Positions 22,708-45,877 of a stretch of DNA of 64,000 nucleotides are shown piece by piece. This stretch comes from Candidatus Pacearchaeota archaeon (GTDB taxonomy: Archaea > Nanobdellota > Nanobdellia > Pacearchaeales > GW2011-AR1), in the NCBI GenBank assembly GCA_017609535.1, contig JAFCDU010000001.1:4782-68781 (forward strand), in the 5' to 3' direction. A program made the position numbers and the translations under genes. The notes below the pieces were generated by a model. The model worked only from the letters and a program-made list of their open reading frames with translations. It was not told where the DNA came from and made no database searches. Positions within the stretch are counted from its first letter, which is position 1. Each line of letters opens with the position of its first letter.

Positions 22708-22755
22708 TTCCTTTTAATCATTAATTTTATAAAGTTAAATTTTCTCTAATTATTA

Positions 22756-22864: not shown

Positions 22865-22908
22865 TCTTTTTAGATACCTTTTTAATTCTAAGTTATTTGC
22901 TAATTTTA

Positions 22909-22982: not shown

Positions 22983-23022
22983 TATAAAAATTTTAAAAAC
23001 CCAGAAATACTCACAATAATAA

Positions 23023-26618: not shown

Positions 26619-27437
26619 TCATTTTGATTTCATTGGGCCTGGTTTTGAAAGTTTAATTTTAATATTAAAATTTTTATTAGGAAATTGTGGAAATTTTAAA
26701 ACTTTAGATTTAATTGGAAAAGGATAGTAAATAGCACACATTGTATTTGAAACCTTATAAACATATTTTCTTCTTTCTTTTGGTGTCCCGTCTAAAATCC
26801 CTGCAAGTGTTGTCCAATTAGTATTCTCATTATCTTTTCCAGCATCATGCCATACTATCATTGAATTTTTATGAATTACTTTAAATACATTTTTCGTATC
26901 TATTTTAACACCAGTATAACTATGGTCACCATCTACAAATATTAAATCGAATTTTTCTTTGAATTTAGTGTAATCAAAAGTATGAGAGTCCTGTTTTATA
27001 TGTTTTACATTTTTCAAATTTTTAGAAAAAAATCTTTGCAACCGAATATACTCTTCTTTCCTACCATATTTTCTTAATTCATCGTCTGATAAGCTAATGG
27101 AAACACATTTATCTGCAACTTGAGAAACATTTGCTATGCTTTCACCCCTCCACGTACCTATTTCTAAATATCTACACTTCTTATACTTTCTTGCCATTTG
27201 TTTTAATAAAGCTAAATCTATAGGCTGGCAGGTTTGAGCTAAATAAGTATAAGGTTCAATTGTTTCCTTAAAATTAGGGGATAAATCTAATAAATCAACT
27301 GTTGGTATTTTTCCATATTTGGCTAAAACATAATCTTTCTTGGATTTCTCCATGGAATTTTCATAACCACCCCTAATAAAAGGTTTTAATTTAAAATTTC
27401 TAATTGCTTGTATAAATTTCTCAACTTTAATTTTCAT
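26619..27437 (-). CDS. Class I SAM-dependent methyltransferase (TylF/Methyltransf_24-like)
   Basis: LEIGTWRGESIANVSQ and DLIFVDGDHSYTGV motifs. Confidence 0.65.
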   Translation of the reverse strand: MKIKVEKFIQAIRNFKLKPFIRGGYENSMEKSKKDYVLAKYGKIPTVDLLDLSPNFKETIEPYTYLAQTCQPIDLALLKQMARKYKKCRYLEIGTWRGESIANVSQVADKCVSISLSDDELRKYGRKEEYIRLQRFFSKNLKNVKHIKQDSHTFDYTKFKEKFDLIFVDGDHSYTGVKIDTKNVFKVIHKNSMIVWHDAGKDNENTNWTTLAGILDGTPKERRKYVYKVSNTMCAIYYPFPIKSKVLKFPQFPNKNFNIKIKLSKPGPMKSK

Positions 27438-27449: not shown

Positions 27450-28109
27450 TCAAGTATTTTTATTTTTTCCAATTAAGTATTTAAATGGATAATTAAACAA
27501 CATTCTAATTTTAGCAAAAGCATATAAAACTAGCAAGGCTAATTTAAACTTTAATTTATAAGGCAGAGTTAATCTTTTAAGAAAAATTAAAAAACTAGAC
27601 TTCCCATTTTTTACATAAAATTGTAATCCAGCATAATAATTTGGATTATTTATCCAAGGGTATTCTTCAGTTTTGTATCCACCATTTTCTTTAAAATATG
27701 CTTTCCATCTCTCTAAATTTTTAGGCACTTTCCAACTATAATTTTTAACAACAAAATCTATACTTTTGTGCTTAATTGTTTGTTGGGGATATAATCTACA
27801 ATGAACCCCTCCCAAAACTATTTTAATTTTTGGATTTAGTTTTTTAATCATTCTTGTTTTTTTCAAGGCATTTGGGATGCATAAACTCATTACAGATAGA
27901 CCAACAACAAATGTATTTTTAATTTCTCTTTTTATTAATTCTTTATAGTCTTTTTCTACAACACAATCAATAAAACAAACTTCAAAATTATTTCTTTTCT
28001 TTATCCAGGTAGCAATCGAAAGTAATTCTAAGGGAAAATTTGTTTTTTTATCTGCCCTGATTAAGGAGGCAGGAATTGTATTTATTAACAAGATCTTTTT
28101 CTTTAGCAT
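27450..28109 (-). CDS. Cobalamin (B12)-binding-domain protein lacking a radical-SAM core; possibly a truncated B12-rSAM paralog
   Basis: N-terminal KILLINTIP...LLSIATWIKK...VVGLSVMS...IVLGGVH resembles the B12-binding domain of B12-rSAM enzymes. No CxxxCxxC cluster. Confidence 0.45.
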   Translation of the reverse strand: MLKKKILLINTIPASLIRADKKTNFPLELLSIATWIKKRNNFEVCFIDCVVEKDYKELIKREIKNTFVVGLSVMSLCIPNALKKTRMIKKLNPKIKIVLGGVHCRLYPQQTIKHKSIDFVVKNYSWKVPKNLERWKAYFKENGGYKTEEYPWINNPNYYAGLQFYVKNGKSSFLIFLKRLTLPYKLKFKLALLVLYAFAKIRMLFNYPFKYLIGKNKNT

Positions 28110-28206: not shown

Positions 28207-28980
28207 TTAGATTGATTTTAAAATCGCTAATGTATCAGATTTGTTTGTTGTTAAGGAATATCCTTGATCTTTAAGCAAATTTTCACATTCTTTCACATCT
28301 TTTTTATTTAAGTGCATATGTTCATAAAAAATCATCTTTGGTTTCAATTTTGTAAAATCAATTAATTTAATAATTTCATAATCAAAACCTTCTGTATCAA
28401 GGTGTAATAAGTCTATTTTTTTAACCTTATTTCTTTTTATCAATTCTTTAAAAGTTATACATCTAACTTTTTCAACAACAAGATATTTTTCAATGTTTGC
28501 AATTATTCTCTTATTTTTTAAAACTGTTTTTTTATCAAAACTCCCTATTTGTTCATACCAACGTGGCATCCCTTTAAGATTTCTTTTAAGGCGATAAAGA
28601 TTTCTGTATTGGTTCTTATTTGATATAGCAACATTTTCAAATATTAATCTTTTATATATATCTGGAGCCCTTTTTCTATAATTCTGAATAAGTCTTTTAA
28701 ATATATACTTAACGGGTTCTATAAGAATACCATCCCACCTGTATTTTATAATAATTCTATGTATAGGGTCTCCACTAAAACCATCATTAGAACCAATTTG
28801 TATAAAGAAAAAATTATCTATCTTTTTTGAATAATGCTCCACAATTACCCCAAAATCCTTAAAATTATCTGGCAAAGAATCATAAAGTTTTTTTGATAAA
28901 AAAGAAATTAGAATTTTATTTAAGGACAATTTTAAAAGATTTTTAACATCTTTAATTTTTCTTTTAATGTCCATTATCAT
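28207..28980 (-). CDS. FkbM-family methyltransferase
   Basis: IQIGSNDGFSGDP and LLHLDTEGFDYEI motifs typical of FkbM. Confidence 0.65.
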   Translation of the reverse strand: MIMDIKRKIKDVKNLLKLSLNKILISFLSKKLYDSLPDNFKDFGVIVEHYSKKIDNFFFIQIGSNDGFSGDPIHRIIIKYRWDGILIEPVKYIFKRLIQNYRKRAPDIYKRLIFENVAISNKNQYRNLYRLKRNLKGMPRWYEQIGSFDKKTVLKNKRIIANIEKYLVVEKVRCITFKELIKRNKVKKIDLLHLDTEGFDYEIIKLIDFTKLKPKMIFYEHMHLNKKDVKECENLLKDQGYSLTTNKSDTLAILKSI

Positions 28981-29867
28981 TTTAATTTATGCCCCCTCTT
29001 CCTTATTTCAACTTTCAAATTCCTTCCTGAAAATCCTGGAGGGTTTTCATCAACATGAATTATCCTCTTTTTAAATCCAAAGGGCATTGGCTTTGCCTGA
29101 GTCCACGAATAGCTAGGGTCAACAGTATAGACATCTTTTTTATTATCAATAAGATATTTATTTAAAAAAGATTCATCCCACCATTTGGCGATAATTCCAT
29201 TCTTAATGTCTATCTCAGTATCCTTTTCCAACTTTTCAGTTGCTTTCAAAAAATCTTTACTTTTCCCTCCCCAGAAACATGCCTGCCAATAAGTAGACAA
29301 ATCATCCCCTTCTTTTACACTCGCTAAAGATTTAGGATTCTGTTCAAACTGTTCAGGCGAAATCTTATTTACAAAATTAAAATGTTGAACAGCAAAAAGT
29401 GGTTTGTCATGGCAAAAAAACTCCTTCTCAGAAATCACAGAAACAGCATACATGTCTGCATCAATATAAATAATATGAGAATAATTTTTCAATTTTTTCT
29501 TTGCTTTATTGATAAACTTAAATTTTCTAAGATTAACAAAAGGAAATTTTTCATGTTTGATTGGAACAATAATTACATCCTCTTTTCCATTAAAAAATTC
29601 AAAATTCGTTTGGTCTGTGAACACAAAAAAATCTTTTTTTGTTTTAGGTAAAAAAAATTTCTTAAAAGTCGTATAATATCGAGGAAAGAAATGAATATAT
29701 TTGTTTGTGCCAATAAATAAGATAGCGACTTTTGTAGGAAATTGCATTTGCTCTCTATAAGTTACAGAAAGAGCTTTTTTCAAGGCTCTATAATCAATGA
29801 TAGTCCGCCAACAATGGGCAATCCTCCCACCAAATACTTTTCTTATTGCAAGCTTAATTTTTTTCAT
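28977..29867 (-). CDS. Glycosyltransferase family 6-like (alpha-1,3-Gal/GalNAc transferase fold) with DxD motif
   Basis: VAILFIGTNKYIHFF...FFVFTDQ, IIYIDADMYAVS (DxD) and KWWDESFLNKYLIDNKK resemble the GT6 signatures (FAIKKY...YYVFTD, YCVDVDM, WHDESHLNKY). Confidence 0.55.
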   Translation of the reverse strand: MKKIKLAIRKVFGGRIAHCWRTIIDYRALKKALSVTYREQMQFPTKVAILFIGTNKYIHFFPRYYTTFKKFFLPKTKKDFFVFTDQTNFEFFNGKEDVIIVPIKHEKFPFVNLRKFKFINKAKKKLKNYSHIIYIDADMYAVSVISEKEFFCHDKPLFAVQHFNFVNKISPEQFEQNPKSLASVKEGDDLSTYWQACFWGGKSKDFLKATEKLEKDTEIDIKNGIIAKWWDESFLNKYLIDNKKDVYTVDPSYSWTQAKPMPFGFKKRIIHVDENPPGFSGRNLKVEIRKRGHKLK

Positions 29868-29935: not shown

Positions 29936-31432
29936 ATGGGAGATTTAAAAGAAAAAACACTAAAAAATTCATTTTGGAACCTTTTAGCAACATTATCAAA
30001 TCGTCTTGGAGGATTGGTATTTACAATAATTTTAGCAAGATTTCTTTTGCCGGAAACTTTTGGGGTCTATTCAATTATAATCTCCATTGCAATGGTTTTT
30101 TTCACATTTGCCGATTTAGGAGTTAATGGCGCCTTGGTAAGATACGTTTCTTATGCTCTTGCATATGAAAAAAGAAAAATCCCCTCTTATTACAGATACT
30201 TGCTGAAACTAAAACTATGTTTTGCCCTGATTGCATCTACATTACTAATTGCCTTGTCTTATCCAATCGCATTTAATTTATATAAAAATCCGCAATTATT
30301 TCAACCGCTCCTTATATGTGGAATCTATATATTCATCTTATCATTTGAAAATTTTTATTCGCAGATTTTTTATGCAGCTGAAAAAGTAAGATACTTAAGC
30401 ATCAAGGAATTCCTTCATCAGGCAATAAGAATTTCTTTAGCATTCTTTGTTTTCTTTTTTGTTACAGCATCATATCAAATAATCGGAATAATCCTGGCTC
30501 TTATTTTAACTGCAATGCTGATGATTATATTCGGAATTTATTATTCTTACAAATTAATTCCTGAAATGTATAAAAAACCAACAGAGAAAATCAATAAAAA
30601 AAGAATTCGAACTTTCCTTAGCTTTCTAACAATCGCGAGCATTTCAAGCATCTTTTTTTCATATATAGATTCTTTAATGCTCGGACTTTTTACTCCAACC
30701 GAGTTTGTAGGATTTTACAGGGTTTCTTTTTCTTTAGTTTTCGGGGTAATTGGTCTGGCATCATTTGCGAATTTAATTTTTCTTCCGATTTTCACAAAAT
30801 TAAAAAAAGAAAAAACAAATCAAGTCTTGAATCTGGCATTTAAATATATCTCATTAATTTCAATTCCAGCGGTATTTGGCGTGCTCATCCTCGGAAAATA
30901 CTTCATCAAGTTCCTTTATGGACAAAGTTATCTGCCCGCAGCCTTGTCACTCCAATTCCTCTCCTTCCTTATTTTTCCCGCAGTTTCTGTAGGCCTCTTT
31001 CTCTCACTCTTTTCAGCTGAAGAAAAACCTCAAATTTTTGCAAAGCTGATAATTTTAGCAACAATTATCAACATAATCCTTAATTTTATCTTCATAAAAT
31101 CATTCCTTGCCATTTCTCCATTATGGGCGACAGCAGGAGCCGCAATAGCCACTTTAATTAGTTGGACCTTTTATTTCATTTCCGCAGTCATCACTATAAG
31201 AAAAGAGTTTAATCTGAAGATAATTTTCAAGCCACTATTAAAGCCGCTATCTGCCTCATTAATTATGGCGATTGTCATAAGGTTGATTTTAATTAAAGGT
31301 TTAAATCTTATTTCAGGAATAGGAACAATATTTGTCGGATTCTTTGTTTATAGTCTTATCATGATTTTAATAGAGAAAAATATAAAAAAGGAAATTCGGA
31401 AATTGATAAAATACATTCTCAAAAACAAATAA
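29936..31432 (+). CDS. Polysaccharide biosynthesis protein / oligosaccharide flippase (Wzx-like, MOP superfamily)
   Basis: 498 aa, about 12-14 TM helices, typical Wzx topology. Sits in a glycan cluster. Confidence 0.65.
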   Translation: MGDLKEKTLKNSFWNLLATLSNRLGGLVFTIILARFLLPETFGVYSIIISIAMVFFTFADLGVNGALVRYVSYALAYEKRKIPSYYRYLLKLKLCFALIASTLLIALSYPIAFNLYKNPQLFQPLLICGIYIFILSFENFYSQIFYAAEKVRYLSIKEFLHQAIRISLAFFVFFFVTASYQIIGIILALILTAMLMIIFGIYYSYKLIPEMYKKPTEKINKKRIRTFLSFLTIASISSIFFSYIDSLMLGLFTPTEFVGFYRVSFSLVFGVIGLASFANLIFLPIFTKLKKEKTNQVLNLAFKYISLISIPAVFGVLILGKYFIKFLYGQSYLPAALSLQFLSFLIFPAVSVGLFLSLFSAEEKPQIFAKLIILATIINIILNFIFIKSFLAISPLWATAGAAIATLISWTFYFISAVITIRKEFNLKIIFKPLLKPLSASLIMAIVIRLILIKGLNLISGIGTIFVGFFVYSLIMILIEKNIKKEIRKLIKYILKNK

Positions 31433-31464: not shown

Positions 31465-32676
31465 ATGGGAGAAGAACGAACCAACAAAAAACTAAAAATC
31501 CTATTTTTTGGACAATTTACAATTAATCATGATTATGGCGGTCAAGGCCTTGCATACCCAATTATGGAATATCTAGATAAATTTTTTGATATAGAATATT
31601 CCTTTATGGTTTCTGAAAAATATTATCAAGAAAATCTTCCTTATGCAGAAAAAAAGGGCTTCAAATTAGTTCCATTTCCTTATCCAAAAATTTTCATAAA
31701 AAATCAGGATTTGATTAATGCGATAAAAGAAACAGATATTATAATTGATGTAGATGGAATTGAGTATATTGGAAATCTTCCTAAAATAAAAAAATGGTTT
31801 CATTTTTATAGAACTTCTTATATCCAAGATTTAGCAAAAAAATATAAAAAAATTTATTTAAAATCTCCAAAATCTTATGGCCCAATACAAGGCAAGATAT
31901 TCAAGATGCTTGTCAAAAGAAAGTTGAACAAAGTGCCTTTCATATTAGTAAGAGGGAAAGAAAATTTTGAAAATTTAAAAAATCTAAATCTAAAAACCCC
32001 AATTTACAATTGCCCCGATGTATCCTTAATCCTCAAACAAAAACAGCAAGAATGGGCAATAGAATATCTTGAAAAGTTAGGAATTAATCCGAGGAAAGAA
32101 TTAATCGGAATCTCTCCGAGTTATGTAATGAATAATAAAAACGAAGACCATTTAGAACTTTCAAAAAAAATAATTAAATATTTTCAATCAAAAGGCCTAC
32201 AAATTTTGATTATTCCTCATGCAATTAATGATAGTGCAGATATAAGCTCTTGTGACCTTGCTCTTTGCAAATATCTTTACGAAGACTTAGAGGATAAACA
32301 AAATGTCTTTCTAATTACAGACACAGATTTAGAATATAAAGAAATAAGAAGCATAATCGGACGATTATCTTTTTACATTACTGCAAGATATCATGGATTG
32401 GCCTCAGCATTATATATGAAAATCCCCACCGTTATCTGGTCCTGGCATACAAAATATAAAGATATGGCTTCATTATATCTATCAGAACCAAAAATAATTT
32501 CAGAGGAAATGACTCCTGAGCAGGCCATTGAGTTTGTAAAAAGTTCTTATGAAAATCAATCTTGGTTTGATAAAACTAAAATGGAAGAAAAACAAAAGAA
32601 TGTAGAATCAGAAATAAATAAGAACTTGAATTTATTTGTAGAAAAAATAAAGGAAAGAACAAATGAATCTACTTGA
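31465..32676 (+). CDS. Polysaccharide pyruvyl transferase family protein (CsaB/WcaK-like)
   Basis: 403 aa. C-terminal ITARYHGLASALYMKIPTVIWSWHTK resembles the conserved RxHxxI...G(I/V)P block. Confidence 0.5.
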   Translation: MGEERTNKKLKILFFGQFTINHDYGGQGLAYPIMEYLDKFFDIEYSFMVSEKYYQENLPYAEKKGFKLVPFPYPKIFIKNQDLINAIKETDIIIDVDGIEYIGNLPKIKKWFHFYRTSYIQDLAKKYKKIYLKSPKSYGPIQGKIFKMLVKRKLNKVPFILVRGKENFENLKNLNLKTPIYNCPDVSLILKQKQQEWAIEYLEKLGINPRKELIGISPSYVMNNKNEDHLELSKKIIKYFQSKGLQILIIPHAINDSADISSCDLALCKYLYEDLEDKQNVFLITDTDLEYKEIRSIIGRLSFYITARYHGLASALYMKIPTVIWSWHTKYKDMASLYLSEPKIISEEMTPEQAIEFVKSSYENQSWFDKTKMEEKQKNVESEINKNLNLFVEKIKERTNEST

Positions 32677-33277
32677 TTTAATAAAGAAACGAAGAAGTAT
32701 AAGGATATTTACAGGCAAAAAAATCCCAGAGGAAGAATTAAAACAAATACTTGAAGCAGGAGTTTGGGCACCCTCTGGGTGCAATAATCAAGAATTAAGA
32801 TTCCTCGTTTTGGAAGATATAACACCAATACTTGAGTTCAAGCCTTACCTAAAGGGGGTTTCTCATTTCATCATTATCTTTTGCGATACTTCTCTCAAAG
32901 GAAGCAAGATGTATAAAAATAAAAATCAAAGACATTTAAAATTCATCGATACTGGTCTTGCCCTTCAAAACATGGTTATATTTGCAAAAAGTAAGGGGAT
33001 TGATAGTTGTATTTGCAATTTATCAAAATATCACTTCAAATTAAAAGGAAAAATATGGGAGAAAATCTTGCGAAGAATTCTGATAAAACTCAATCTTTAT
33101 AGTTTTTCAAAATCAAATTTTGAATACATAGTTAGAAATAAATTAAAAATTCCAAAACATCTTGAAATAACTGGGGCAGTGGCTCTTGGCTATGGAAAAG
33201 TTTTTCCTGATTTAAGTATAGCAATGCATGATGGTAAAAAAATTAAAAGAAATCCAGTAGATTTTTATAGATTATAA
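32663..33277 (+). CDS. Nitroreductase-family protein
   Basis: RRSIRIF...EELKQILEAGVWAPSGCNNQ N-terminal signature. Confidence 0.6.
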   Translation: MNLLDLIKKRRSIRIFTGKKIPEEELKQILEAGVWAPSGCNNQELRFLVLEDITPILEFKPYLKGVSHFIIIFCDTSLKGSKMYKNKNQRHLKFIDTGLALQNMVIFAKSKGIDSCICNLSKYHFKLKGKIWEKILRRILIKLNLYSFSKSNFEYIVRNKLKIPKHLEITGAVALGYGKVFPDLSIAMHDGKKIKRNPVDFYRL

Positions 33278-33894
33278 TGAAAGATATAAATGCGACAATT
33301 TTAGTTGACCTTACACCAACTGAAGAAGAAATTTTCCAGAATATTCACAAGGATGCGAGATGGGGGATAAAAAAGGCGCTAAAAAACGGCTTGAAAGTAA
33401 AACAAACAGAAGATTGGGAAACTTTTTATCCAATTTATCAAAAAACAATGGCTACAGGAGGCGGTTTTATTCATTCCCTCAAGACTGTTAAAGAAACTTC
33501 CGCAATCCTCTTTTTATGTTATTACAAAAATAAACCAATTGCAGGATTGTCTATCGGATTCAGGGATGACAAATACGATAAAAATCTACCAAGCCTTTCA
33601 AAATTAGCATCATTAAAAGAATATCAAAATCTTCAACCAAATAACCTTCTCGTTTGGGAAGCAATAAAATGGAGTAAAAAAAAGGGCTACAAAAAATTTG
33701 ATATGGGGGGCTGGCAGATAAAGGCACAAGGCCATCTTGTCGGAATAAACAAATTCAAAGAAAGATGGGGAGAACTAACTTACTATTATAAAGATTATCC
33801 AATAAAAATCGCAATTGGAAGAAAGTTAGTTAGAAATTTCCCATTAATAAAAAAAATCTGGGATAAAATAAAAAAGGAAGTTAAAAAGAATTAA
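33277..33894 (+). CDS. GNAT/FemAB-like acyltransferase (Acetyltransf_6-like)
   Basis: 205 aa. WEAIKWSKKKGYKKFDMGG resembles the FemAB/BioF2-like C-terminal motif. Confidence 0.4.
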   Translation: MKDINATILVDLTPTEEEIFQNIHKDARWGIKKALKNGLKVKQTEDWETFYPIYQKTMATGGGFIHSLKTVKETSAILFLCYYKNKPIAGLSIGFRDDKYDKNLPSLSKLASLKEYQNLQPNNLLVWEAIKWSKKKGYKKFDMGGWQIKAQGHLVGINKFKERWGELTYYYKDYPIKIAIGRKLVRNFPLIKKIWDKIKKEVKKN

Positions 33895-34026
33895 AGTGAT
33901 TAACACAAATAATCTTGAAAAGCAGAATATTGAAATTTATAGAAGCTCTAGGGCTATTACCCATTATAATCGTGTCGGTCTAAACCTATTGAAGAAGTAA
34001 TAATCAATAAATATTTTAAGAAAAAT

Positions 34027-34559
34027 ATGAAGATTTTAGACCTCGGGTGCGGAGTTGGAAGAACAACAAAACCATTGTATGACCTAGGATATAATGTGAT
34101 TGGTGTCGAGATAATTAAAGAGATGATTGATCTTGCCAAAAAGAAATATCCTAATATTGATTTTAGGGTGGGTGATGCTTGTAATCTAAAATTTAAAGAT
34201 GCAGAATTTGATATTGTTTTCTTTTCATTTAACGGTATGGATTACATTTTTCCAGAAAAAAAATAGTTGCATTAAAAGAGATTAATCGAGTTCTTAAAAA
34301 AGGAGGTTATTTTATATTCAGTAGCCATAACGCTAAGGGCTTATTTTTTAAGTTCAGACCTTTCTTTTTTCTTAGAAACCTGTTTAAAGGAACTTTGTTT
34401 TCAAGATATAAAATAGATACAAATAAAGACTTTGATGCTCTTTATACTTTTTATGCTTCGCCGAAATATAATATTAAACAAATAGAAAAAGCTACTAACC
34501 TAAGATTTATGGAATTTTTTAAACCTTATCTCACACCTTATTATGTATTTAAAAAATAA
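34027..34559 (+). pseudogene. Class I SAM-dependent methyltransferase interrupted by a -1 frameshift in an A8 homopolymer (34256-34263)
   Basis: Frame 1 reads MKILDLGCGVGRTT...DIVFFSFNGMDYIFPEKK then stops. The +2 frame continues IVALKEINRVLKKGGYFIFSSHN...YYVFKK. Nine A's would restore a single ORF. Confidence 0.65.
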
Positions 34560-34809
34560 ATAGTAAGAAAAATCTTGATTATTTGACACAATAAAAAAAA
34601 CATATGATGACCGCCCAAATCTATCATATCTATGGGAGCAGTTTTAAAATTAAGAAATTTGAAATTGTAAAAATTGCAGAGGGAAGAAGGTTTCCAGTTG
34701 TAAGTAAGATAATAAAGATTTTAGACAAACCCTTCTTTTGGTTGGGCATTGGAGGAAAATTTATGTATGCATTATGTGAGAAGATTTAGTTGTCCTGAAA
34801 ACATTTATA

Positions 34810-35493
34810 TTGGTTCTTTCCTTATCCCTCTTTATGAAAATTTTACTTACAATAGATGTTGAAACTACTCGCGAAATTCCAGAAATGATAGGAATCTTGA
34901 AAAAGAAAAAAATTGAAACAATTTTTTTTGTTCCAGCTCAACTTTTGGAATCTAAACCTCACCTCAAAAAACTTACTAAATATGGAAAAATAGGTTTACA
35001 TGGCTATCAACACGAAAGATTTGACTTACTTGATTATAAAGAAAAGGAAGAGCTGATTAAAAAATCAGTTAAAGTTTATAAAAAAATTTTTAATAGAGAC
35101 CCAGAATATTTCAGAGCACCACAATTCTCTGCTGATTTTGAATTGTTGAAAATTCTTGAAAAATACGGATTCAAAAAGGATTTTTCTGTCACAGAATTCC
35201 CTCTTTTTCAGACAATATTCTTTCCTACCCATTTTTTAACTTATCTTAAACAAATAAAAATTGACAAAAAACTTAAAGAAAAAGGCATGAAAATTAAAGA
35301 AATTAAACTTTCTTCTGCTGTTTTCCCCTTTAGTATGTTTTTTCTAAAACTCCTACCTTTGCCGATTTTTTTAATTTTTGCTAAAATTTATTTTGTTTTT
35401 AAAAAAACCAAGAAACTTGTTTTCCTAGCTCACTCTTACGAATTTGGCAATAAAAAATTAAGAAAAAAATTTTTAAGATTCTATCATATTTAA
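34810..35493 (+). CDS. Polysaccharide deacetylase (NodB-like)
   Basis: LLTIDVETTRE...ETIFFVPAQ...GLHGYQHERF. Confidence 0.55.
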   Translation: MVLSLSLFMKILLTIDVETTREIPEMIGILKKKKIETIFFVPAQLLESKPHLKKLTKYGKIGLHGYQHERFDLLDYKEKEELIKKSVKVYKKIFNRDPEYFRAPQFSADFELLKILEKYGFKKDFSVTEFPLFQTIFFPTHFLTYLKQIKIDKKLKEKGMKIKEIKLSSAVFPFSMFFLKLLPLPIFLIFAKIYFVFKKTKKLVFLAHSYEFGNKKLRKKFLRFYHI

Positions 35494-35561
35494 AGAGAAC
35501 CTAAAACCTGAGAATCTAATTATAATTAACTTTTTATATTGCAACTATTAAGTATTGAAAA

Positions 35562-36692
35562 ATGAAAAGGAAAAAAATTTTAGAAATTTGTAATTTCTCT
35601 TCTGGAATTTCTGGGGTTTGGACAAGGGTTTTAGAGGAAAGTAAAATTTTTTCAAAAAAAAACGAAGTTTGGATTTTTTCGTCTAATCTTAAAAATGAAA
35701 AAGAAAAAGTTAAAGATTATGAAAAAATTGAAAAAATAAAAATCAGAAGATTCCCTGTGAGATTCAGAGCAGGTTACGCTTTATTTTTTGACTTTTATAA
35801 AGAAGCTTTGATTTTAAAGCCCGACATAATTATAGCCCATGGTTTTAGAAAACCTTATTTAAACCAGGTTATCAGGCTTAAGAAAAAATTAGAAAAGAAA
35901 GGAAAAAAAATTAAAATCTTCCTTGTTACTCATGCACCTTTTTTAGAAAAAGGTTTAAGAAATAAATTGATTGAGTTTATTGTTAAATGTTATGATTTTT
36001 TTTATGCAAAAAAAATTTTGAATTCTTTTGATAAGGTTATAGCAATAACAAAATGGGAAATCCCTATTTTATTAAAATTAGGGTGTGAAAAAGAAAAAAT
36101 AGTTTATATTCCGAATACTATTCCAGAAAATTTTTTTAAAGAAAAGAAGGGAAGAGAAATTAAAGGGAGAATTTTGTTTTTCGGAAGGATAAACAGGATA
36201 AAAAATTTAGAAACCCTCATTTTGGCTTGTTCAAAATTAAAACATTCAAGATATAGTTTAAATATAACTGGCCCAGCTGATGAAAAATATTTAGAGGAGC
36301 TGAAAAGCCTGACAGAAAAATCAAAAGTTAAAGTTAAATTTTCTAAACCCCTTTATGCTCTAAAAGAAAAAATTAAAAAAATAGATTCCTGCGAGATTTT
36401 TGCCTTACCTTCTAAAAGAGAAGGCTTACCTTTATCAATAATTGAAGCCATGGCAAGGAGCAAAGTAGTGATAAGTTCAAATACTCAGGGTGCAAAAGAA
36501 CTTATTGAAGATGGTAAGAATGGATTTTTATTTAAAATTGGAGATTATAATGAACTATCTGAAATCTTGAAATTTTGTTTAAATGAAAAAAACTCAAAAC
36601 AATTAAAAAAAATTAAAGAAAATGCAAGAAAAAGCGTAAAAAACTTTAAATTATCAAACATTATGAAAAAATACAATCAATTATTAAGATGA
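35562..36692 (+). CDS. Glycosyltransferase family 4 (GT-B, retaining)
   Basis: C-terminal EGLPLSIIEAMARSKVVISSNTQGAKELIEDGKNGFLF (EX7E motif). Confidence 0.8.
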   Translation: MKRKKILEICNFSSGISGVWTRVLEESKIFSKKNEVWIFSSNLKNEKEKVKDYEKIEKIKIRRFPVRFRAGYALFFDFYKEALILKPDIIIAHGFRKPYLNQVIRLKKKLEKKGKKIKIFLVTHAPFLEKGLRNKLIEFIVKCYDFFYAKKILNSFDKVIAITKWEIPILLKLGCEKEKIVYIPNTIPENFFKEKKGREIKGRILFFGRINRIKNLETLILACSKLKHSRYSLNITGPADEKYLEELKSLTEKSKVKVKFSKPLYALKEKIKKIDSCEIFALPSKREGLPLSIIEAMARSKVVISSNTQGAKELIEDGKNGFLFKIGDYNELSEILKFCLNEKNSKQLKKIKENARKSVKNFKLSNIMKKYNQLLR

Positions 36693-37549
36693 TAACAATC
36701 GGAATTCCAACCTACAATGAAGAAAAAGTTATAGCAAAATGCATAAAATCTGTATTAAATCAAATCTCTCCTGATGATGAAATAATTGTTGTAGCATCAG
36801 GATGCACAGATAACACTGTTCAGGAAGTTAAAAAAATAAAAGATAAACGAGTAAAATTAATTATAGAAAAAGAAAGGAATGGAAAATCTTCTGCATTAAA
36901 TTTGATAATAAAGAATGCTAAATCAGATATAATAGTTCAGACAGATGGTGATGTTGAGATAAAACAAGATTCAATTTCAAAGTTAATAAGACATTTCAAG
37001 GACCCAAAGATAGGAGGGGTTTCCGGAAACCCAATTCCAATTTTACCAAAAAATAATTTATTTTATGATTGGACAATGATGAGTTACAGAAAATCAGGCG
37101 AATTAAGAAAACAGCAGTCTGAACAAGGAACCTTTTGGCATATGTCAGGATATCTTCTTGCTTTCAGAAAAAAAGCCCTCCCTCAAGTGCCTTTTGCAAA
37201 AGGAGCAGTTGATGCTTGGATGGGCAAAATAATAAAAAATAATGGATACAAAATCGTCTATGAACCAGAAGCAAAGGTGCTTGTCAAAACCCCATTAACA
37301 ATAAAGGATTTCATTAGGCAAAAAGCCAGAGTTAGAGCAGGATATAATCTGATTCCCAACCCCCCAAGAACTGCAGGTTCAGAAATAATTTATCTTCCAA
37401 AAGAACTCTTAAAAATTCCAATCACCCGCTACCCCAAATTTCTTCTCTCTGGTTCTATCTACTTATTTAGCTGGATAAAAGGGTGGTATCTTGCAAAAAC
37501 AAATAAATCACTCAACCAAATTTGGAAGGTTCCAGAATCTACAAAATAA
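36689..37549 (+). CDS. Glycosyltransferase family 2
   Basis: IGIPTYNEEKVI, IIVVASGCTDNT and QTDGD (DxD) motifs. Confidence 0.8.
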   Translation: MITIGIPTYNEEKVIAKCIKSVLNQISPDDEIIVVASGCTDNTVQEVKKIKDKRVKLIIEKERNGKSSALNLIIKNAKSDIIVQTDGDVEIKQDSISKLIRHFKDPKIGGVSGNPIPILPKNNLFYDWTMMSYRKSGELRKQQSEQGTFWHMSGYLLAFRKKALPQVPFAKGAVDAWMGKIIKNNGYKIVYEPEAKVLVKTPLTIKDFIRQKARVRAGYNLIPNPPRTAGSEIIYLPKELLKIPITRYPKFLLSGSIYLFSWIKGWYLAKTNKSLNQIWKVPESTK

Positions 37550-37583
37550 CAACAAATAAAAATCATATAAATAATTAACAATT

Positions 37584-39173
37584 ATGGAAAAACAATCAAA
37601 TGAGGGAATAAAAGAAAGAAAGAAAAAAATACAAACATGGCTTAAAAATCCTTATGTGATTTTGTTTATTTTAATTATTCTGCTTGCAATTATCCTTAGA
37701 GTAATCATATTTTCTAAGACAACATCTCAGGGATTATGGTGGGATGAAGCAGAATATATGGCAAAGGCAAAGTACATCGCCTATGGATACGACTGGATAG
37801 ATTTTTGGAATCCTCATAAACCGATTTTATTGAGTTTAATCGCAGTTCCAATCTTTCTATCAGGAATAGGAGAAATTGGGGTCAGATTTTTGATTCTTAT
37901 CCTTTCAATCGCCGGTGTCATTTTTATGTATTTTGCCGCAAAAGAATTTTTCAATAGTAAAAAAATTGGATTGTTCTCAGCCTTTTTAATGGCAATATAT
38001 TGGGTTCATTTATTTTTTACCGGCCGAATTCTCGTAGGACTCCCTGCAACAACTTTCTTTTTATTATTTTGGTTTTTCTTCACAAAAGGATTCATCAAAA
38101 AACAAAACCCAAAATATATCTGGCTTGCAGCTTTTTTCTTTGGCATTGGGTTCATGATAAGAGTTGTATATGGGATGATGGCAATCCCCATTTTTCTTTA
38201 TGCATTATATGAAGAAAAACTAAAAATTTTTAAAGATAAAAATAATTGGATTGCACTCGGAATTTTAATTTTAACTCTTTCCCCAATGTTAATTTTTCTT
38301 ATTTCTTCATATCCGCAGGACCCAATAGGAGAATTTATTGGATTTAAACACCATAGATTTTCAGAATCTTCAGGAGCAATGGGTTTTTCAGGAATTCCAA
38401 AATATTTTACAGGATTAGTTTATGGAATCGCCGGCCAATTCCCAATCTCCAAATGGATTTTCTTTGGACTATTTTTAATAGGCTGTTTGATTTATTTTTC
38501 CGACCTGGTTTTCGCATATGACAGAATCTCAAAATCAAAAAGATTAAGAAAAAAATTATTTGTCATCTTTTTTATAATCTTTCTTTTTTTTGTATGGGGG
38601 TATACAAGGGCATATGTTGAGCAGCGGGATTATCTTTCAATGGCTGTTTTCCTTTTCGGAATTTCTGGGATTGGTTTTTTTAGATTAAAATCCATAATCT
38701 CACAATACGATAAGACACTCGCATTTATTTTAATGTTCGGTTTATTATTAATAGGCGCCTATTACAATATAGATTGGGGGATTAAACTAACAGAAGTAAA
38801 AGCAATCTCCCCTTATAATTCTATAAAAGAAGCAGGACTTTGGTTAAAAGAAAATTCCAATGAGAATGATATAATCTATACTACTGCACGGAAACAAATT
38901 ATGTATTATGCGGATCGAGAAGTACTTGACCCAATGGCAGTTGATTACAAGACACCTCAAAAAACTCCCGAAGAAATTGATGAAGAGTTAAAAAACAATA
39001 AGAATATAAAATTCATAGAAATGGATGTCATAGAAAAACGATATCCTGCTTCAGAATATCTATATAATTGGATTCAAAATAATTCAGAGATAGTAAAACC
39101 AATTATCACATGGTATGCAGATGAGCAAAAAACCCAGCCAGTAGTAGTTATTTACAAACTAATGGATAGATAA
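37584..39173 (+). CDS. GT-C fold membrane glycosyltransferase (ArnT/PMT-like)
   Basis: 529 aa. N-terminal TM then WWDEAEYMAKAKY (DE-x-x-Y loop). Multiple TM helices and a C-terminal soluble domain. Confidence 0.65.
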   Translation: MEKQSNEGIKERKKKIQTWLKNPYVILFILIILLAIILRVIIFSKTTSQGLWWDEAEYMAKAKYIAYGYDWIDFWNPHKPILLSLIAVPIFLSGIGEIGVRFLILILSIAGVIFMYFAAKEFFNSKKIGLFSAFLMAIYWVHLFFTGRILVGLPATTFFLLFWFFFTKGFIKKQNPKYIWLAAFFFGIGFMIRVVYGMMAIPIFLYALYEEKLKIFKDKNNWIALGILILTLSPMLIFLISSYPQDPIGEFIGFKHHRFSESSGAMGFSGIPKYFTGLVYGIAGQFPISKWIFFGLFLIGCLIYFSDLVFAYDRISKSKRLRKKLFVIFFIIFLFFVWGYTRAYVEQRDYLSMAVFLFGISGIGFFRLKSIISQYDKTLAFILMFGLLLIGAYYNIDWGIKLTEVKAISPYNSIKEAGLWLKENSNENDIIYTTARKQIMYYADREVLDPMAVDYKTPQKTPEEIDEELKNNKNIKFIEMDVIEKRYPASEYLYNWIQNNSEIVKPIITWYADEQKTQPVVVIYKLMDR

Positions 39174-41965: not shown

Positions 41966-43008
41966 TTTTTAATTTTTAGTGAGTAATAAATTCCCAATAA
42001 TATTGGTAAAATGCAGGTAATAAAAATATTCAATAATGACATTGAAAATACTTTAATAGCAGGAATTTCAAATAATCCAAATAATCCAATCATCGTTGCC
42101 TCTCGCGTCCCAATCCCCCCAATAGTTATAGGAATTTGAGCCACTAAAGTTGAAATAGGCATAATTGCAAGATAGTAAATAAAGTCAATTTCAATTCCAA
42201 GCGACAACCCAATCAAATAACCAACAAAATAAAGAAAAATCCATATAAAAAGATTTATTATAAAAATAAAAAATAATTCATCGTGACGGGGCATATTCTC
42301 ATAAAAATCATCAAAGGCCTTTCCAACCTTTTTTCTTAATCTTATTGGCAAAAAATTATAAAAGATTCTCCCAAAAAAACGCATTGCCCTTTTATTAATA
42401 AAAATAAACAAACCAAAAATCAAGCAAAAAAATATTGCAATAAGATACCATAACGATATTATCTCAAACCTGCTTCGAAAAATAATTGCAAATACAATAG
42501 CAAGAAAAAACACAGAAATTAAATCAAAAACCTTCTCTAAAATAAAGTTGCTCACCCCCTTTGCAATTGTTCCCGAATATTTCTTAATATACTCTGTTCG
42601 CATAACTCTGCCGATTTGTGATGGTGTAACAAATGCATAGAAATTACTTATCAAATCAATCTTAAATGCCTCTAAATAAGGAATCCTAATTTTTTGTTTT
42701 CTGGCAATTACATACCACTTCAATGGCTGGGCAAACGTATAGATTGCAGCCAGAACAATCGCAAGAATCAAAAAGCCAGGTTCAGCACTAATAAGTTGCT
42801 TCCAAACTTTTACAACATCAAGTTTAACAAGAATATACAAAAAAAGCAGTATACCAATTATTGGAAGATACCTTTTAATTTTGGCCCATTTCATAAAAAA
42901 CATTGCAGATAATAAATTAAAAAGCTTTCTAAATTCTATATGAATCTTTATAAAGCTTTCAAATATCGAAGTTTTATGGAAGGATTGTCTCTTGTTGTTC
43001 CGATTCAT
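41962..43008 (-). CDS. Flippase-like integral membrane protein (LPG_synthase_TM/UPF0104 family)
   Basis: 348 aa, about 8 TM helices. This family is commonly paired with GT2 genes. Confidence 0.55.
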   Translation of the reverse strand: MNRNNKRQSFHKTSIFESFIKIHIEFRKLFNLLSAMFFMKWAKIKRYLPIIGILLFLYILVKLDVVKVWKQLISAEPGFLILAIVLAAIYTFAQPLKWYVIARKQKIRIPYLEAFKIDLISNFYAFVTPSQIGRVMRTEYIKKYSGTIAKGVSNFILEKVFDLISVFFLAIVFAIIFRSRFEIISLWYLIAIFFCLIFGLFIFINKRAMRFFGRIFYNFLPIRLRKKVGKAFDDFYENMPRHDELFFIFIINLFIWIFLYFVGYLIGLSLGIEIDFIYYLAIMPISTLVAQIPITIGGIGTREATMIGLFGLFEIPAIKVFSMSLLNIFITCILPILLGIYYSLKIKK

Positions 43009-43668
43009 AATGGAGAAGAAGTGATTGAAAAATCAATAAAGGAGTACTATGAATCCTTTTCTAAAAAATTCAAAAATTTTGAGATTATAGCAGTTTGCAA
43101 CGGCTGTAGAGATAATAGTGCAAAAATCTGCCATTCTCTAAAATCAACATTTCCAATAAAAGTCATAGAGATAACTCAGAGCGGAAAAGGCCTGGCGCTT
43201 GTAAGCGGATTTAATAATTGTAAATTTGATTATATTGGCTTCCTTGATGGCGATAATCCTTTTGATTTAGACAAAATAATTAAAATGATTGATTATCTAA
43301 AAGATTATGATGTTGTGATTTCAACAAAATATCTCAGAGGAAAAGCAAAAACCCAGGATTCATGCCTTAGAAGATTAATCTCCCTGGGCGGAGGCATTTT
43401 TTCACGCATTATTTTTAATTTAAATTTCAGGGACACCCAAGCAGGAGCCAAATTCATGAAAAGAGAAGTCTGGCGTTCAATTGACAGAAAATTTATTTGT
43501 ATAGGATTTGACTTTGATATAGAATTACTCTACAAATTAAAAAAATCAAAATTTAAAATCGTAGAAGTTTATACGCCAGTAATAAAAAAAGAGAAATTTA
43601 GCACATTAAGATTAAAATATCTCCCTTCAATGATTTATCGGCTAATAAAATTAAAATTCAAAAAATGA
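42940..43668 (+). CDS. Glycosyltransferase family 2 (dolichyl-phosphate hexose synthase-like)
   Basis: LSLVVPIHNGEEVI, FEIIAVCNGCRDNS and FLDGDNPFD motifs. Confidence 0.75.
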   Translation: MNLYKAFKYRSFMEGLSLVVPIHNGEEVIEKSIKEYYESFSKKFKNFEIIAVCNGCRDNSAKICHSLKSTFPIKVIEITQSGKGLALVSGFNNCKFDYIGFLDGDNPFDLDKIIKMIDYLKDYDVVISTKYLRGKAKTQDSCLRRLISLGGGIFSRIIFNLNFRDTQAGAKFMKREVWRSIDRKFICIGFDFDIELLYKLKKSKFKIVEVYTPVIKKEKFSTLRLKYLPSMIYRLIKLKFKK

Positions 43669-44426
43669 AAATACTTCTTACAATAGATTTAGAAGAATTT
43701 GACCTCCCATTGGAATTTGGGATTCAATTGAGAAAATCAGAACAATTCAAAATTTCAAAATTAGGATTAGATAATCTATTGAAAATATTAGATAAATATC
43801 AAATTAAAGCAACCTTTTTCACAACCTCGGCATTTGCATCAAAATATTCAAAACAAATAAAACAGCTTTCTCAAAAACATGAAATTGCCTGCCATGGTTT
43901 ATCCCATTCAGAAACCTGCACTTTAGATTCATTAAAAATCGCAAAAACAAAAATAGAAAAAATAATTAATAAAAAACTTTCAGGTTTTCGTGCTCCAAGA
44001 TACAATTTCAAAAAAATAAAGGAATTAGAACTTCTTAATTTTAAATATGATTCCTCAATCCACCCCACCTGGCTCCCCGGACGATATTGCAATATATTAA
44101 AAAAAAGAACAATGCATAAAATAGGAAATATAATAGAAATCCCCCCTTCAACGCTCCCTTTCTGCCGTCTTCCAATCTATTGGCTCGCATTCAAAAATTT
44201 TCCGCTGATTTATTCAATCGCTTTCACAAAAATAAATTTTCTTTTTTCAGATTACATAATGCTGGTCTTCCATCCTTGGGAATTTACGAACTTAAAAAAA
44301 TTTAAAATACCAAGATATATAAAACATCCAATAATAAAAAAATTAGAAAAATATATCCGATTTTGCAAAAAAAATAATTATCAGTTTACAAGCATCTCAA
44401 ATTATCTCCAAAAATCCATCAAGTGA
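43665..44426 (+). CDS. Polysaccharide deacetylase (NodB-like)
   Basis: LLTIDLEEFD...ATFFTTSAF...ACHGLSHSE. Confidence 0.6.
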   Translation: MKILLTIDLEEFDLPLEFGIQLRKSEQFKISKLGLDNLLKILDKYQIKATFFTTSAFASKYSKQIKQLSQKHEIACHGLSHSETCTLDSLKIAKTKIEKIINKKLSGFRAPRYNFKKIKELELLNFKYDSSIHPTWLPGRYCNILKKRTMHKIGNIIEIPPSTLPFCRLPIYWLAFKNFPLIYSIAFTKINFLFSDYIMLVFHPWEFTNLKKFKIPRYIKHPIIKKLEKYIRFCKKNNYQFTSISNYLQKSIK

Positions 44427-45877
44427 CCAGCAACCGCTTTAACTCCACGGAGATTAAACTTAAAATCATCAAAATTTTTTACATTTTTAATTCTCTGAAA
44501 AACATATCTTGGAGTCAGAAAAATTGTATAAATTTTTCCACAAACTGCTGCAACTTCATCTGCATCCCCATCAACTTTTAATACTGGTTCCCTCATATCG
44601 TATCTTTCATATTCTAATGGATTAAATAAAAACCAACCTTTTTCATTTGCCTCGTTCCATAATTTGGTTCCTGGATAAGGAATTAAAATAGTTGCTTGCA
44701 GAACATCTGCGAATCCAGATTGCATTAATCTTTTAGCAAGTTTAAAAGTCCTTAAAGCATCTTCTTTGCTTTCCCAAGGATAACCAACAATCATAGTTAA
44801 ATGAACAGTCAAACCAGATTTATGAGCCATTTTGCATCCATCAATAATATCTTGAACCTTAATCCCCTTGTTTAATCTATCCAATGTCTCTTGATTAGCA
44901 CTCTCAAGCCCAAACTTAAGCAGTCTAAATCCTGCCTTTTTCATCAAATCATAATCATCCTTCTTCAAAGCACCAAATCTCATATTGCAGGAATATTTTA
45001 TCCTCTTATTATATCCCCTTTTAATCAGCCCATTACATAATTCTCTTAACCAGTTCCCGACAGATAATGTCCCAGAATCATCAAAAATTTCTTTAACATT
45101 ATATTTCTTAATCAGCTCTCCGATTTCATCTAAAACATTTTTCGGGCTTCTATTTCTAAAACAAGGATACATACGGGGCCATGAACAAAATTTGCACTTC
45201 CCCCACCAGCAGTCCCTTCCAGACATAATGTAAAAATAAGGCCTGCCCCACATATTATATTCTCTCTGATAATTTCTCCACTTTGTCAACTCGCGGTCAA
45301 TGTAAGGGGCATCATCAAGTTTATGCTTCAATTCAAACTTTCCAGAATTTTTTATTTTTCCTTTCTCCCTATACCAAACCCCCTTGGGAAGTTTGCCCCC
45401 CTTAATCCAATCAACTAATTCAGAGGATAAAAAATCAAAATCCCCCCCAGTCAACACAAAATCCGCCTTAGAATTTTTCATAGTTTCTTCAGGAAAAGAA
45501 GTAACATGGTCGCCGCAAATTGCAATCTTCATCTCAGGAAATTCTTCCTTTAACCGATTAATTATCCTCCAATGAAGCTTAACAACAGGGGTTTTTGTTT
45601 CAAAAATAAATAACTCTGGATGTTCTTTTTCAAGTAATTTAAAAAACTCATCATTATTAATGCCTTCAGCAACGCAATCAACCCATTTAATTTCATGTCC
45701 TTTCTGCTTCAGCATTGTTGCAGCAGTCCCCATAACAACAGGAAAAATCAAACAAGGATTATTAAACCATTGAAACTGCCGATTCTGACCCAAAGTAGCA
45801 GTTCCTTTTTCAGATTTTGTGGGAGGATATCCAATAAATATTTTCATTTTTGTCTGAAAAACATTGCATAAAGCCAT
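44402..45877 (-). CDS. B12-binding radical SAM enzyme (probable methyltransferase class B)
   Basis: N-terminal B12-binding domain. SGRDCWWGKCKFCS cysteine cluster with CX4CX2C spacing. C-terminal rSAM TIM-barrel-like region. Confidence 0.65.
   Translation of the reverse strand: MALCNVFQTKMKIFIGYPPTKSEKGTATLGQNRQFQWFNNPCLIFPVVMGTAATMLKQKGHEIKWVDCVAEGINNDEFFKLLEKEHPELFIFETKTPVVKLHWRIINRLKEEFPEMKIAICGDHVTSFPEETMKNSKADFVLTGGDFDFLSSELVDWIKGGKLPKGVWYREKGKIKNSGKFELKHKLDDAPYIDRELTKWRNYQREYNMWGRPYFYIMSGRDCWWGKCKFCSWPRMYPCFRNRSPKNVLDEIGELIKKYNVKEIFDDSGTLSVGNWLRELCNGLIKRGYNKRIKYSCNMRFGALKKDDYDLMKKAGFRLLKFGLESANQETLDRLNKGIKVQDIIDGCKMAHKSGLTVHLTMIVGYPWESKEDALRTFKLAKRLMQSGFADVLQATILIPYPGTKLWNEANEKGWFLFNPLEYERYDMREPVLKVDGDADEVAAVCGKIYTIFLTPRYVFQRIKNVKNFDDFKFNLRGVKAVAGHLMDFWR

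Follow-up and report, generated by a model that had tools for sequence, protein, structure and literature searches.

A DxD-type GT6 glycosyltransferase in the glycan-assembly locus of a Pacearchaeota-type archaeon

We have analysed a 64,000-nucleotide stretch of the contig JAFCDU010000001.1 (positions 4,782 to 68,781; assembly GCA_017609535.1, Candidatus Pacearchaeota archaeon), hereafter the window, and found that it carries a gene for a glycosyltransferase of family GT6, the retaining family to which the human blood-group A and B transferases (GTA and GTB) belong. The gene encodes a 296-residue protein which, judged by its sequence and its predicted structure, is a member of GT6 with the GT-A fold. 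It lies among genes for glycan assembly on the contig of a DPANN archaeon. We consider, with a probability of about 0.68, that the protein is a functional, metal-dependent, cytoplasmic GT6 enzyme that probably transfers galactose (Gal) to a lipid-linked oligosaccharide, and that the gene goes back to an older horizontal acquisition. What is new is that a known GT6 clade has an archaeal member, whose subgroup shows modest peculiarities; the kind of enzyme is not new. The gene and its parts are listed here in window positions, with the equivalent residues of GTA and of BoGT6a, the GT6 enzyme of Bacteroides ovatus.

28977..29867, minus strand: GT6 glycosyltransferase gene, 296 amino acids (ATG-started open reading frame, ORF; Pfam PF03414; AlphaFold2; Foldseek; hydropathy).
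29733..29867, minus strand: N-terminal extension, codons 1-45, with three predicted amphipathic cationic helices at residues 2-12, 14-24 and 26-33 (AlphaFold2 secondary structure; hydrophobic moment; charge).
29454..29462, minus strand: DxD motif D136-A137-D138 for binding of metal and uridine diphosphate (UDP), equivalent in the alignments to GTA D211-V-D213 and BoGT6a N95-A-N97.
29277..29285, minus strand: donor-specificity tripeptide Q195-A196-C197, equivalent to GTA L266-G267-G268 (residue mapping).
29172..29183, minus strand: W-x-D-E block W229-W230-D231-E232 with the catalytic Glu; E232 is equivalent to GTA E303 and BoGT6a E192.
29046..29057, minus strand: H271-V-D-E274, with the near-invariant, clade-specific His271 and with Glu274 at the usual Lys site.

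A preliminary description, made from the letters of the DNA, had reported a 296-residue ORF with three blocks resembling GT6 signatures. The ORF is on the minus strand, and its translation holds all of these blocks: ILFIGTNKY...DFFVFTDQ (residues 49-86), IIYIDADMYAVS (131-142) and KWWDESFLNKYLIDNKK (228-244). The proposed family was borne out. The only Pfam match of the protein is PF03414 (Glyco_transf_6), with 66.7 bits against a cutoff of 25 and E=2.1e-18, in an alignment covering profile positions 75-298 of 313; even at E<=10, Pfam gave nothing else. In NCBIfam, the model NF041524 (Gltr_6), which describes the BoGT6a-like bacterial subfamily, gave 155.5 bits. This is under its curated cutoff of 250, so the protein is not a member of that subfamily, and the sub-cutoff score would explain the 'hypothetical protein' labels in the source databases. 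Besides NF041524 there was a single further NCBIfam match, with E=0.045. A phmmer search of the PDB sequences placed BoGT6a first (E=8.5e-20), followed by human GTA/GTB (about 1e-17) and bovine alpha-1,3-galactosyltransferase (about 1e-7). The structure prediction suggested by the preliminary description pointed the same way. An AlphaFold2 model, for which a 49-sequence alignment was the input, reached a mean local confidence (pLDDT) of 94.6 and a pTM of 0.92, and Foldseek searches of the PDB returned BoGT6a chains first, with target-normalised template-modelling scores of 0.85-0.89 and root-mean-square deviations of 2.1-2.7 A, and GTA/GTB next; all 50 of the matches listed were BoGT6a or GTA/GTB. 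An 89-residue antisense ORF inside the gene (29382-29651) was rejected as a shadow of GT6 conservation and is not regarded as a real gene.

For the residue mapping, the human GTA sequence was matched to PDB 4Y62, and BoGT6a was taken from the HMMER alignment, whose numbering agrees with the residues N95, N97, H122, T134, W189-E192 and K231 given by Pham et al. (PMC3961637). Both aspartates of the DxD motif, D136 and D138, are invariant across the 49 clade members. The acceptor-binding histidine H162 corresponds to GTA H233; in the block W229-W230-D231-E232, which continues with S233, W229 corresponds to GTA W300 and D231-E232 to GTA D302-E303. H162, W229, D231 and E232 are also invariant in the 49 relatives. 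On the other hand, two acceptor-contact positions are unlike those of GTA (T245 becomes P171, and D326 becomes T256). Considering that the DxD-type GT6 of Parachlamydia acanthamoebae needs Mg2+/Mn2+ and that the NxN enzyme BoGT6a is metal-independent (PMC3516806, PMC3961637), the DxD motif suggests that the archaeal enzyme would depend on a divalent metal.

The identity of the donor sugar can be approached through the tripeptide at GTA positions 266-268. In GTB, a side chain bigger than Gly at position 268 shuts out the N-acetyl group of the donor. Tests of 266-268 codes in the human enzyme showed strong Gal (B) activity and no N-acetylgalactosamine (GalNAc; A) activity for QGC and QGA (Yamamoto et al., PMC5377540, Table 2); MAA gave Gal activity, so that Ala at 267 is tolerated, and AGG and CGG are A-specific motifs (PMC5377540). 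The code of our protein is QAC, and in its clade QGC (42), QAC (24) and QSC (11) together make up 77 of 109 sequences. The 266-268 code fits prokaryotic DxD enzymes: relatives of Parachlamydia known from metagenome-assembled genomes (MAGs) carry AGG/CGG, and the P. acanthamoebae enzyme transfers GalNAc in an Mg2+/Mn2+-dependent manner (PMC3516806). Additionally, in cyanophage S-CAM9 a UDP-glucose 4-epimerase gene lies two genes upstream of a QGC-type GT6. Based on these comparisons, we lean modestly towards UDP-Gal as the donor of the archaeal enzyme. We also observed that position 199 (GTA F270), two residues after the tripeptide, is Trp in 95 of 109 sequences with DxD and His271 and Asn in 54 of 68 NxN sequences. 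The residue at this position tracks the metal motif, which suggests a co-evolving second-shell site in the switch between metal dependence and independence.

The C-terminal part of the catalytic domain holds the two main peculiarities of the subgroup. The position of His271 is occupied by Ala in GTA (A343) and by I, L, V or M in NxN enzymes. His271 closes a beta-strand directly before the flexible C-terminal tail, which we take to be the same topological place as that of the C-His of GT8 enzymes. GT6 is described as lacking this 'C-His', the canonical metal ligand of GT-A enzymes, and as having a water molecule in its stead (Taujale et al. 2020). When we aligned the protein with human glycogenin-1, a GT8 enzyme with a DxD...His metal site, by hhalign, the DxD strand alone was aligned (36 columns, probability 13.8%). 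We therefore regard the identification of His271 with the C-His metal ligand as tentative, with the odds somewhat against it; alternatively, His271 may have a role in the acceptor site like that of a3GT W356, which has the equivalent position by our numbering. Glu274, in turn, sits at the conserved Lys position of GT6 (GTA K346, BoGT6a K231, a3GT K359). Every DXD and NXN GT6 enzyme has been described as retaining this C-terminal Lys, with an important part in leaving-group stabilisation (PMC3961637). In the query clade, 43 of 109 sequences have Lys at this position, whereas 79 of 80 viral contigs and all 63 of the ungapped NxN sequences have it. We read Glu274 as divergence of the subgroup and not as exclusion from a family that is defined by similarity.

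The host of the gene is a Pacearchaeota-type DPANN archaeon. Archaeal marker genes stand on both sides of the GT6 gene. The contig encodes Orc1/Cdc6, the small subunit of PolD, an Lhr helicase, RNA polymerase subunit D, DUF655, SecD/F, SecY, the ribosomal proteins L19e, S4e, L18/L5e and L24/L26e, and AglB. The named homologues of SecY, at 71-87% identity, are mostly from Candidatus Pacearchaeota, Nanoarchaeota or Nanoarchaeia archaeon. Among them, a SecY with 72% identity (P0225) is labelled 'Methanococcoides sp. SA1'; that assembly probably holds a DPANN contig, from a co-cultured episymbiont or from contamination. A second assembly, from another JGI sample (contig L084), shows 99.8% nucleotide identity to the window and an identical gene order. 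A third contig, L081, carries a GT6 with 66% identity, a Wzx with 71% and a SecD with 85% identity to those of the window. The GC content is 0.31 in the GT6 gene, 0.30 in the cluster and 0.34 in the rest of the window. Because the GC content is near that of the host, and because a 66%-identical GT6 occupies the same SecD-adjacent position in a relative with an 85%-identical SecD, the acquisition of GT6 is not recent, and the gene and its neighbours have had time to diverge together in this lineage.

Relatives of the protein are widespread, and most of them have the DxD motif. A word-indexed search yielded 106 homologues, the closest at 66% identity; 95 of them have DxD, NxN is confined to the 11 most distant, and PF03414 is annotated in all but P0072, for which there is no precomputed Pfam domain. 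GT6 proved to be a small family when 1.84 billion representatives were searched exhaustively: matches came from about 1,950 clusters at 50% identity, of which 66 had E<=1e-30. In GTDB, scanned with a 15-sequence alignment, relatives were found in 367 species-representative genomes. The best 16 of the 367 matches include MAGs titled Nanoarchaeota (2), Pacearchaeota (2), Woesearchaeota and Thermoplasmatales, interleaved with Acidimicrobiia, Solirubrobacteraceae, Limisphaerales, Omnitrophota, Acidobacteriota and others. Archaeal GT6 genes are thus already present, unremarked, in public MAGs. At six such loci (L002, L005, L006, L008, L010 and L014) the flanks hold glycan genes only, and the archaeal label comes from binning only. 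The NxN form prevails in gut-associated Lachnospiraceae, Bacteroidota and Alphaproteobacteria. Several relatives are fusions: a Woesearchaeota-labelled protein of 603 residues (L010, 6380-8191) has an N-terminal GT6 followed by about 340 residues without a Pfam match, proteins of 479-1027 residues from Omnitrophota, Spongiihabitans, Saprospiraceae and Acidobacteriota (L009, L011, L012 and L013) have GT6 in the middle or at the C-terminus, and the exhaustive search lists many more GT6 proteins of 500-1260 residues.

Among viruses, IMG/VR contains 291 contigs with relatives, the best 80 of which all have DxD, QGC and His271 (one is gapped at 271). Deposited phage genomes gave 72 records with relatives. 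Synechococcus or Prochlorococcus phages are named in 65 of these, and the annotation 'glycosyltransferase family 6' already appears in many of the 72. Two cultured cyanophage proteins share the signature of DxD, QxC and His271. The earlier remark that phage GT6 members often carry NxN does not hold for these sequences, since the best 80 viral contigs and both cultured cyanophage proteins are DxD throughout. The expectation that an archaeal member retaining DxD would be notable stands only in part: DxD is retained and the archaeal host is notable, whereas DxD itself is not exceptional, as it occurs in 95 of the 106 homologues and in a known clade of the family.

We placed the protein in a neighbour-joining tree of 188 domain-trimmed sequences (231 columns, 200 bootstraps). 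The split of all DxD sequences from the NxN sequences has a bootstrap of 79%. Human GTA falls with the chlamydial type (72.5%) and not with the query clade, which comprises 109 tips (54%). The signature of DxD and His271 is present in 106 of these 109 tips; because the clade coincides with the signature to this extent, the signature is not a circular one. The query and P0002-P0004, which come from archaeal relatives by synteny, fall in a 19-tip clade with 95% bootstrap, which also holds sequences from Acidimicrobiia and Solirubrobacteraceae (locus GC 0.69-0.71 for these two) and from Limisphaerales (GC 0.55). The remaining archaeal GT6 sequences fall in at least four other places in the tree. 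The horizontal acquisition proposed in the preliminary description is consistent with this patchy tree: archaeal sequences that are scattered and interleaved with those of bacteria and phages suggest repeated transfer between domains, for which phages would be plausible vectors.

In this tree, the DxD enzymes of prokaryotes and phages split into two types. The chlamydial type shows 36% identity to GTA, lacks His271 and keeps the Lys; the cyanophage/cellular type shows 24% identity and has His271. Within the latter, an N-terminal extension of 45 residues and a relaxed Lys position (K in 43/109) mark a cellular subgroup. We did not find this split described in the literature accessible to search.

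The N-terminal extension distinguishes the cellular subgroup from other prokaryotic members. Its median length is 45 residues in the query clade versus 2 in NxN enzymes; it is not present in BoGT6a or in the phage enzymes, and the phage proteins begin at about query residue 46. The first 33 residues, which form the three predicted helices, have a net charge of +10 and a high hydrophobic moment. No transmembrane segment was detected in the 296-residue protein (the maximum 19-residue hydropathy is 0.81). Based on the sequence and the model, the helices may serve as a putative peripheral membrane anchor on the cytoplasmic face. A likeness of the extension to the vertebrate region before beta-1 (EQ..Q) was rejected, as the match is short and the segment is predicted to be coil.

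The neighbouring genes of the glycan cluster, which were assigned by Pfam, are as follows.

26619..27437, minus strand: Methyltransf_24 methyltransferase, the last gene of the minus-strand run.
27450..28109, minus strand: B12-binding-domain ORF, 219 amino acids (PF02310 only).
28207..28980, minus strand: FkbM-type methyltransferase (PF05050); its ATG overlaps the TGA of GT6 as ATGA.
29936..31432, plus strand: Wzx/AglR-like polysaccharide flippase (PF01943 and PF13440), with the 71%-identical homologue in L081.
31465..39173, plus strand: pyruvyl transferase, nitroreductase, FemAB-like protein, frameshifted S-adenosylmethionine (SAM) methyltransferase, deacetylase, GT4, GT2 and PMT_2-type GT-C.
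42940..46776: GT2, deacetylase, B12-radical SAM enzyme and GT2.
46770..47810, minus strand: polyprenyl-phosphate sugar-1-phosphate transferase, the initiating enzyme, AglH/WecA-like (PF00953); abuts AglB.
47843..50728, minus strand: AglB/STT3 oligosaccharyltransferase (PF02516 and PF21436).

From the initiating transferase to AglB, this is a complete glycan-assembly locus, which also contains an LPG-synthase-like gene. The archaeal glycan cluster of the preliminary description is thereby confirmed, with informational genes, AglB, an initiating transferase and a flippase on one contig. GT6 is the first gene of a minus-strand run, followed by the FkbM methyltransferase, the B12-domain remnant and the Methyltransf_24 enzyme; the ATGA overlap between GT6 and FkbM is consistent with one operon and with possible translational coupling. 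The flippase gene is divergent from GT6, with a 68-bp AT-rich spacer between them. A scan for sigma-70 promoters and terminators gave 22 sites versus 23.1 expected and no terminators, with a bacterial model that is not applicable to an archaeon.

Two genes of the locus are degraded. The 219-residue B12 ORF matches an intact 514-residue B12-radical SAM homologue of L081 (7616-9160) in two pieces (58% over 122 residues and 41% over 176), and the same remnant is present in L084; apparently, an internal deletion has reduced a B12-radical SAM gene to this ORF. In the window, loss of 4 bp (AGAG, near 34264) has frameshifted the class I SAM methyltransferase gene at 34027-34563 (plus strand); L084 (5305-5841) has it intact, encoding 178 residues, at 99.8% identity between the two assemblies elsewhere. 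The difference may reflect a strain-variable inactivation or a sequencing error. In DPANN-type contigs (L005, L008, L081/L082 and the window), GT6 is repeatedly found beside SAM methyltransferases, B12-binding radical SAM enzymes and radical SAM-SPASM enzymes, which suggests that the added sugar or its neighbours are methylated or otherwise radical-modified. In L083, the contig of P0002, a reverse transcriptase gene (RVT_1; 1309-2304), possibly of the group II intron type, lies between Wzx and GT6.

Elsewhere in the window, a lone 5S rRNA gene (22754-22866) has tRNA genes on either side (22339-23128). The tRNA matches of 141 nt (22339-22479, minus strand) and 106 nt (23023-23128), compared with a 71-position model, were missed by ARAGORN and probably carry archaeal-type introns. 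The GC skew over positions 1-64000 is -0.3 to -0.5 at minus-strand genes and near zero or slightly positive at plus-strand genes (32-38 kb), indicating that coding strands in this AT-rich genome hold markedly more G than C.

Three clades of GT6 have been described (Thiyagarajan et al. 2012, PMC3516806). Clade 1 comprises prokaryote and phage proteins with a minimal domain and DxD, including cyanophage P-SSM2, marine metagenome homologues and Parachlamydia; clade 2 comprises the vertebrate enzymes; and clade 3 comprises NxN bacterial enzymes with a C-terminal BHB membrane anchor. By its sequence, the archaeal protein is assigned to clade 1, in which retention of DxD is expected and not exceptional. 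It is not 'minimal', as it has the 45-residue N-terminal extension, and its putative membrane element would be at the N-terminus, whereas that of the NxN clade, BHB, is C-terminal (PMC3516806). GT6 has been stated not to occur in archaea (Pham et al. 2014, PMC3961637), which the archaeal host described here contradicts, and prokaryotic GT6 enzymes have been generalised as having lost DxD (Taujale et al. 2020). No archaeal GT6 was found in the papers accessible to search.

The closest comparison is with cyanophage GT6 proteins (S-CAM9 AOV60554.1 and DSL-LC02 WJZ48322.1), which show 34-40% identity over residues 46-275 and have DxD, Q-x-C, Trp199, W-x-D-E-S and His271 in common with the query. 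They lie on the same tree branch, as does the marine 238-residue group, and are set among sugar-nucleotide and glycosyltransferase genes. However, they are only about 239 residues long, without the N-terminal extension or the basic C-terminal tail, keep Lys where the query has Glu274, and belong to phages of cyanobacteria and not to an archaeon. BoGT6a (PDB 4AYJ, 4AYL and 4CJ8), the best PDB match of the query in both sequence and structure (about 26% identity), has an equivalent catalytic Glu, acceptor His and W-x-D-E block (W-H-D-E in BoGT6a). It is a metal-independent NxN GalNAc transferase that makes the A antigen, with NxN, AGG (GalNAc) and K231 in place of DxD, QAC and E274. GTA/GTB and bovine alpha-1,3-galactosyltransferase have the DxD metal site, the catalytic Glu and the GT-A fold in common with the query; the vertebrate enzymes, at 24% identity, are type II Golgi membrane proteins with a stem, and GTA has Ala at the position of His271 and keeps K346. 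The P. acanthamoebae enzyme (PaGT6) is prokaryotic, with DxD and a minimal domain, and transfers GalNAc to the H antigen with Mg2+/Mn2+ dependence; no other biochemically tested prokaryotic DxD GT6 was found in the accessible literature. The Parachlamydia MAG relatives have Ala for His271, keep Lys, carry AGG/CGG and show 36% identity to GTA, versus 24% for the query.

The locus itself resembles the agl loci of the Haloferax type, which likewise combine AglB, a Wzx-family flippase, an initiating transferase, several glycosyltransferases and methyltransferases. In such loci AglB has neighbouring glycosyltransferases, a flippase-like protein (AglR) and a methyltransferase (AglP). To our knowledge, none of the described agl pathways uses a GT6 enzyme.

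On this basis we propose the following pathway. The GT6 enzyme would dock at the cytoplasmic face of the membrane through its cationic amphipathic N-terminal helices and would transfer an alpha-linked hexose, most likely Gal from UDP-Gal, onto a lipid-linked oligosaccharide. Modification of the glycan could follow, for example by the methyltransferase encoded by the gene that overlaps the stop codon of GT6; the neighbouring Wzx-like flippase would then flip the glycan, and the AglB of this locus would attach it to surface proteins. The co-location of GT6 with AglB, the initiating transferase and the flippase may point to a role in AglB-dependent N-glycosylation. The gene would have come into the lineage horizontally from bacteria or phages, and not recently.

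Several points weigh against this proposal. With the conserved Lys replaced by Glu274, donor handling may differ, or another basic residue, for instance K285 of the C-terminal tail, may support activity. The donor code table comes from the human enzyme, and QAC is not among its codes. Co-location is what favours the AglB N-glycan route over another surface polymer, and the lipid-linked acceptor is a tentative proposal. The B12-radical SAM remnant and the frameshifted methyltransferase indicate decay of the locus, so that the pathway may be partly degenerate. The activity of members with the N-terminal extension is a prediction from sequence. Finally, the neighbour-joining tree has a weak backbone (54% for the query clade) on which to count and orient the transfers.

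Among the other explanations, the one with some weight, although we consider it unlikely, keeps the family and the mechanism and changes the specificity or the target: the sugar transferred may be GalNAc or glucose, or the acceptor may be a glycolipid, a small molecule or a surface polymer, O-linked or otherwise. QAC lies outside the tested codes, and both the NCBIfam model and phage annotators say 'glucosyltransferase'; however, QGC and QGA are purely Gal codes, Ala at 267 is tolerated, a side chain bigger than Gly at 268 bars the N-acetyl group, and a UDP-glucose 4-epimerase stands beside a phage homologue. As for the target, the acceptor contacts differ from those of GTA, and the PMT_2-type GT-C and the LPG-synthase-like gene point to other surface modifications, whereas the initiating transferase, the flippase and AglB share the locus with GT6. 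It is improbable that GT6 is decaying or already inactive, a leftover of a cassette acquired horizontally. Two degraded neighbours (27450-28109 and 34027-34563) and the replacement of the conserved Lys would fit a relic, but the ORF is full-length, the clade-invariant catalytic residues are intact, the fold is predicted with confidence and the start-stop overlap with FkbM is kept; moreover, the Lys site is variable across the cellular subgroup, so that E274 is no private lesion.

Two further explanations have next to no probability. One holds that bacterial or viral DNA was misjoined or misbinned into an archaeal assembly, as the closest named relatives include bacteria and phages and several archaeal labels of MAGs come from binning. 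For the window this origin is effectively ruled out by the mid-contig site of GT6 with archaeal genes on both sides, by the junctions reproduced in L084 at 99.8% identity and by the linkage of GT6 and SecD in L081; the GC content also matches the host. The other holds that another GT-A family mimics the GT6 motifs, and the preliminary description had named a better match to GT8, GT32 or another GT-A family as what would overturn its assignment. The DxD strand does align weakly with the GT8 enzyme glycogenin, as is expected of any GT-A enzyme, but Pfam gave no such family at E<=10, the other NCBIfam match reached only E=0.045, and the PDB sequence matches and the 50 fold matches listed were all GT6. 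We accordingly retain the reading of a functional, metal-dependent GT6 enzyme.

A more far-reaching idea is rather doubtful, and we offer it as speculation. Pacearchaeota and other DPANN archaea might cap AglB N-glycans with alpha-1,3-Gal, similar to blood group B or alpha-Gal, and GT6 genes might be exchanged among cyanophage-like viruses, environmental bacteria and archaea. His271 would then be the C-His that is said to be lost in vertebrate and gut-bacterial GT6 enzymes, and the subfamily would represent an ancestral-like state of the ABO family in which this His and the C-terminal Lys are partly interchangeable.

In summary, the GT6 literature accessible to search describes a family of vertebrates and a few bacteria and phages. 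The window proves at the level of the contig that a GT6 gene is fixed in an archaeal chromosome, and it corrects the taxonomic picture of the ABO family. The DxD form is the common environmental form of GT6, present in phages, many bacterial phyla and DPANN archaea. These results bear on the origin of the ABO family and on the cross-domain, probably virus-assisted exchange of surface-glycan genes. They also offer compact, soluble, probably Gal-specific enzymes for glycoengineering, and they bear on the surface chemistry of DPANN episymbionts, which must attach to their host cells.

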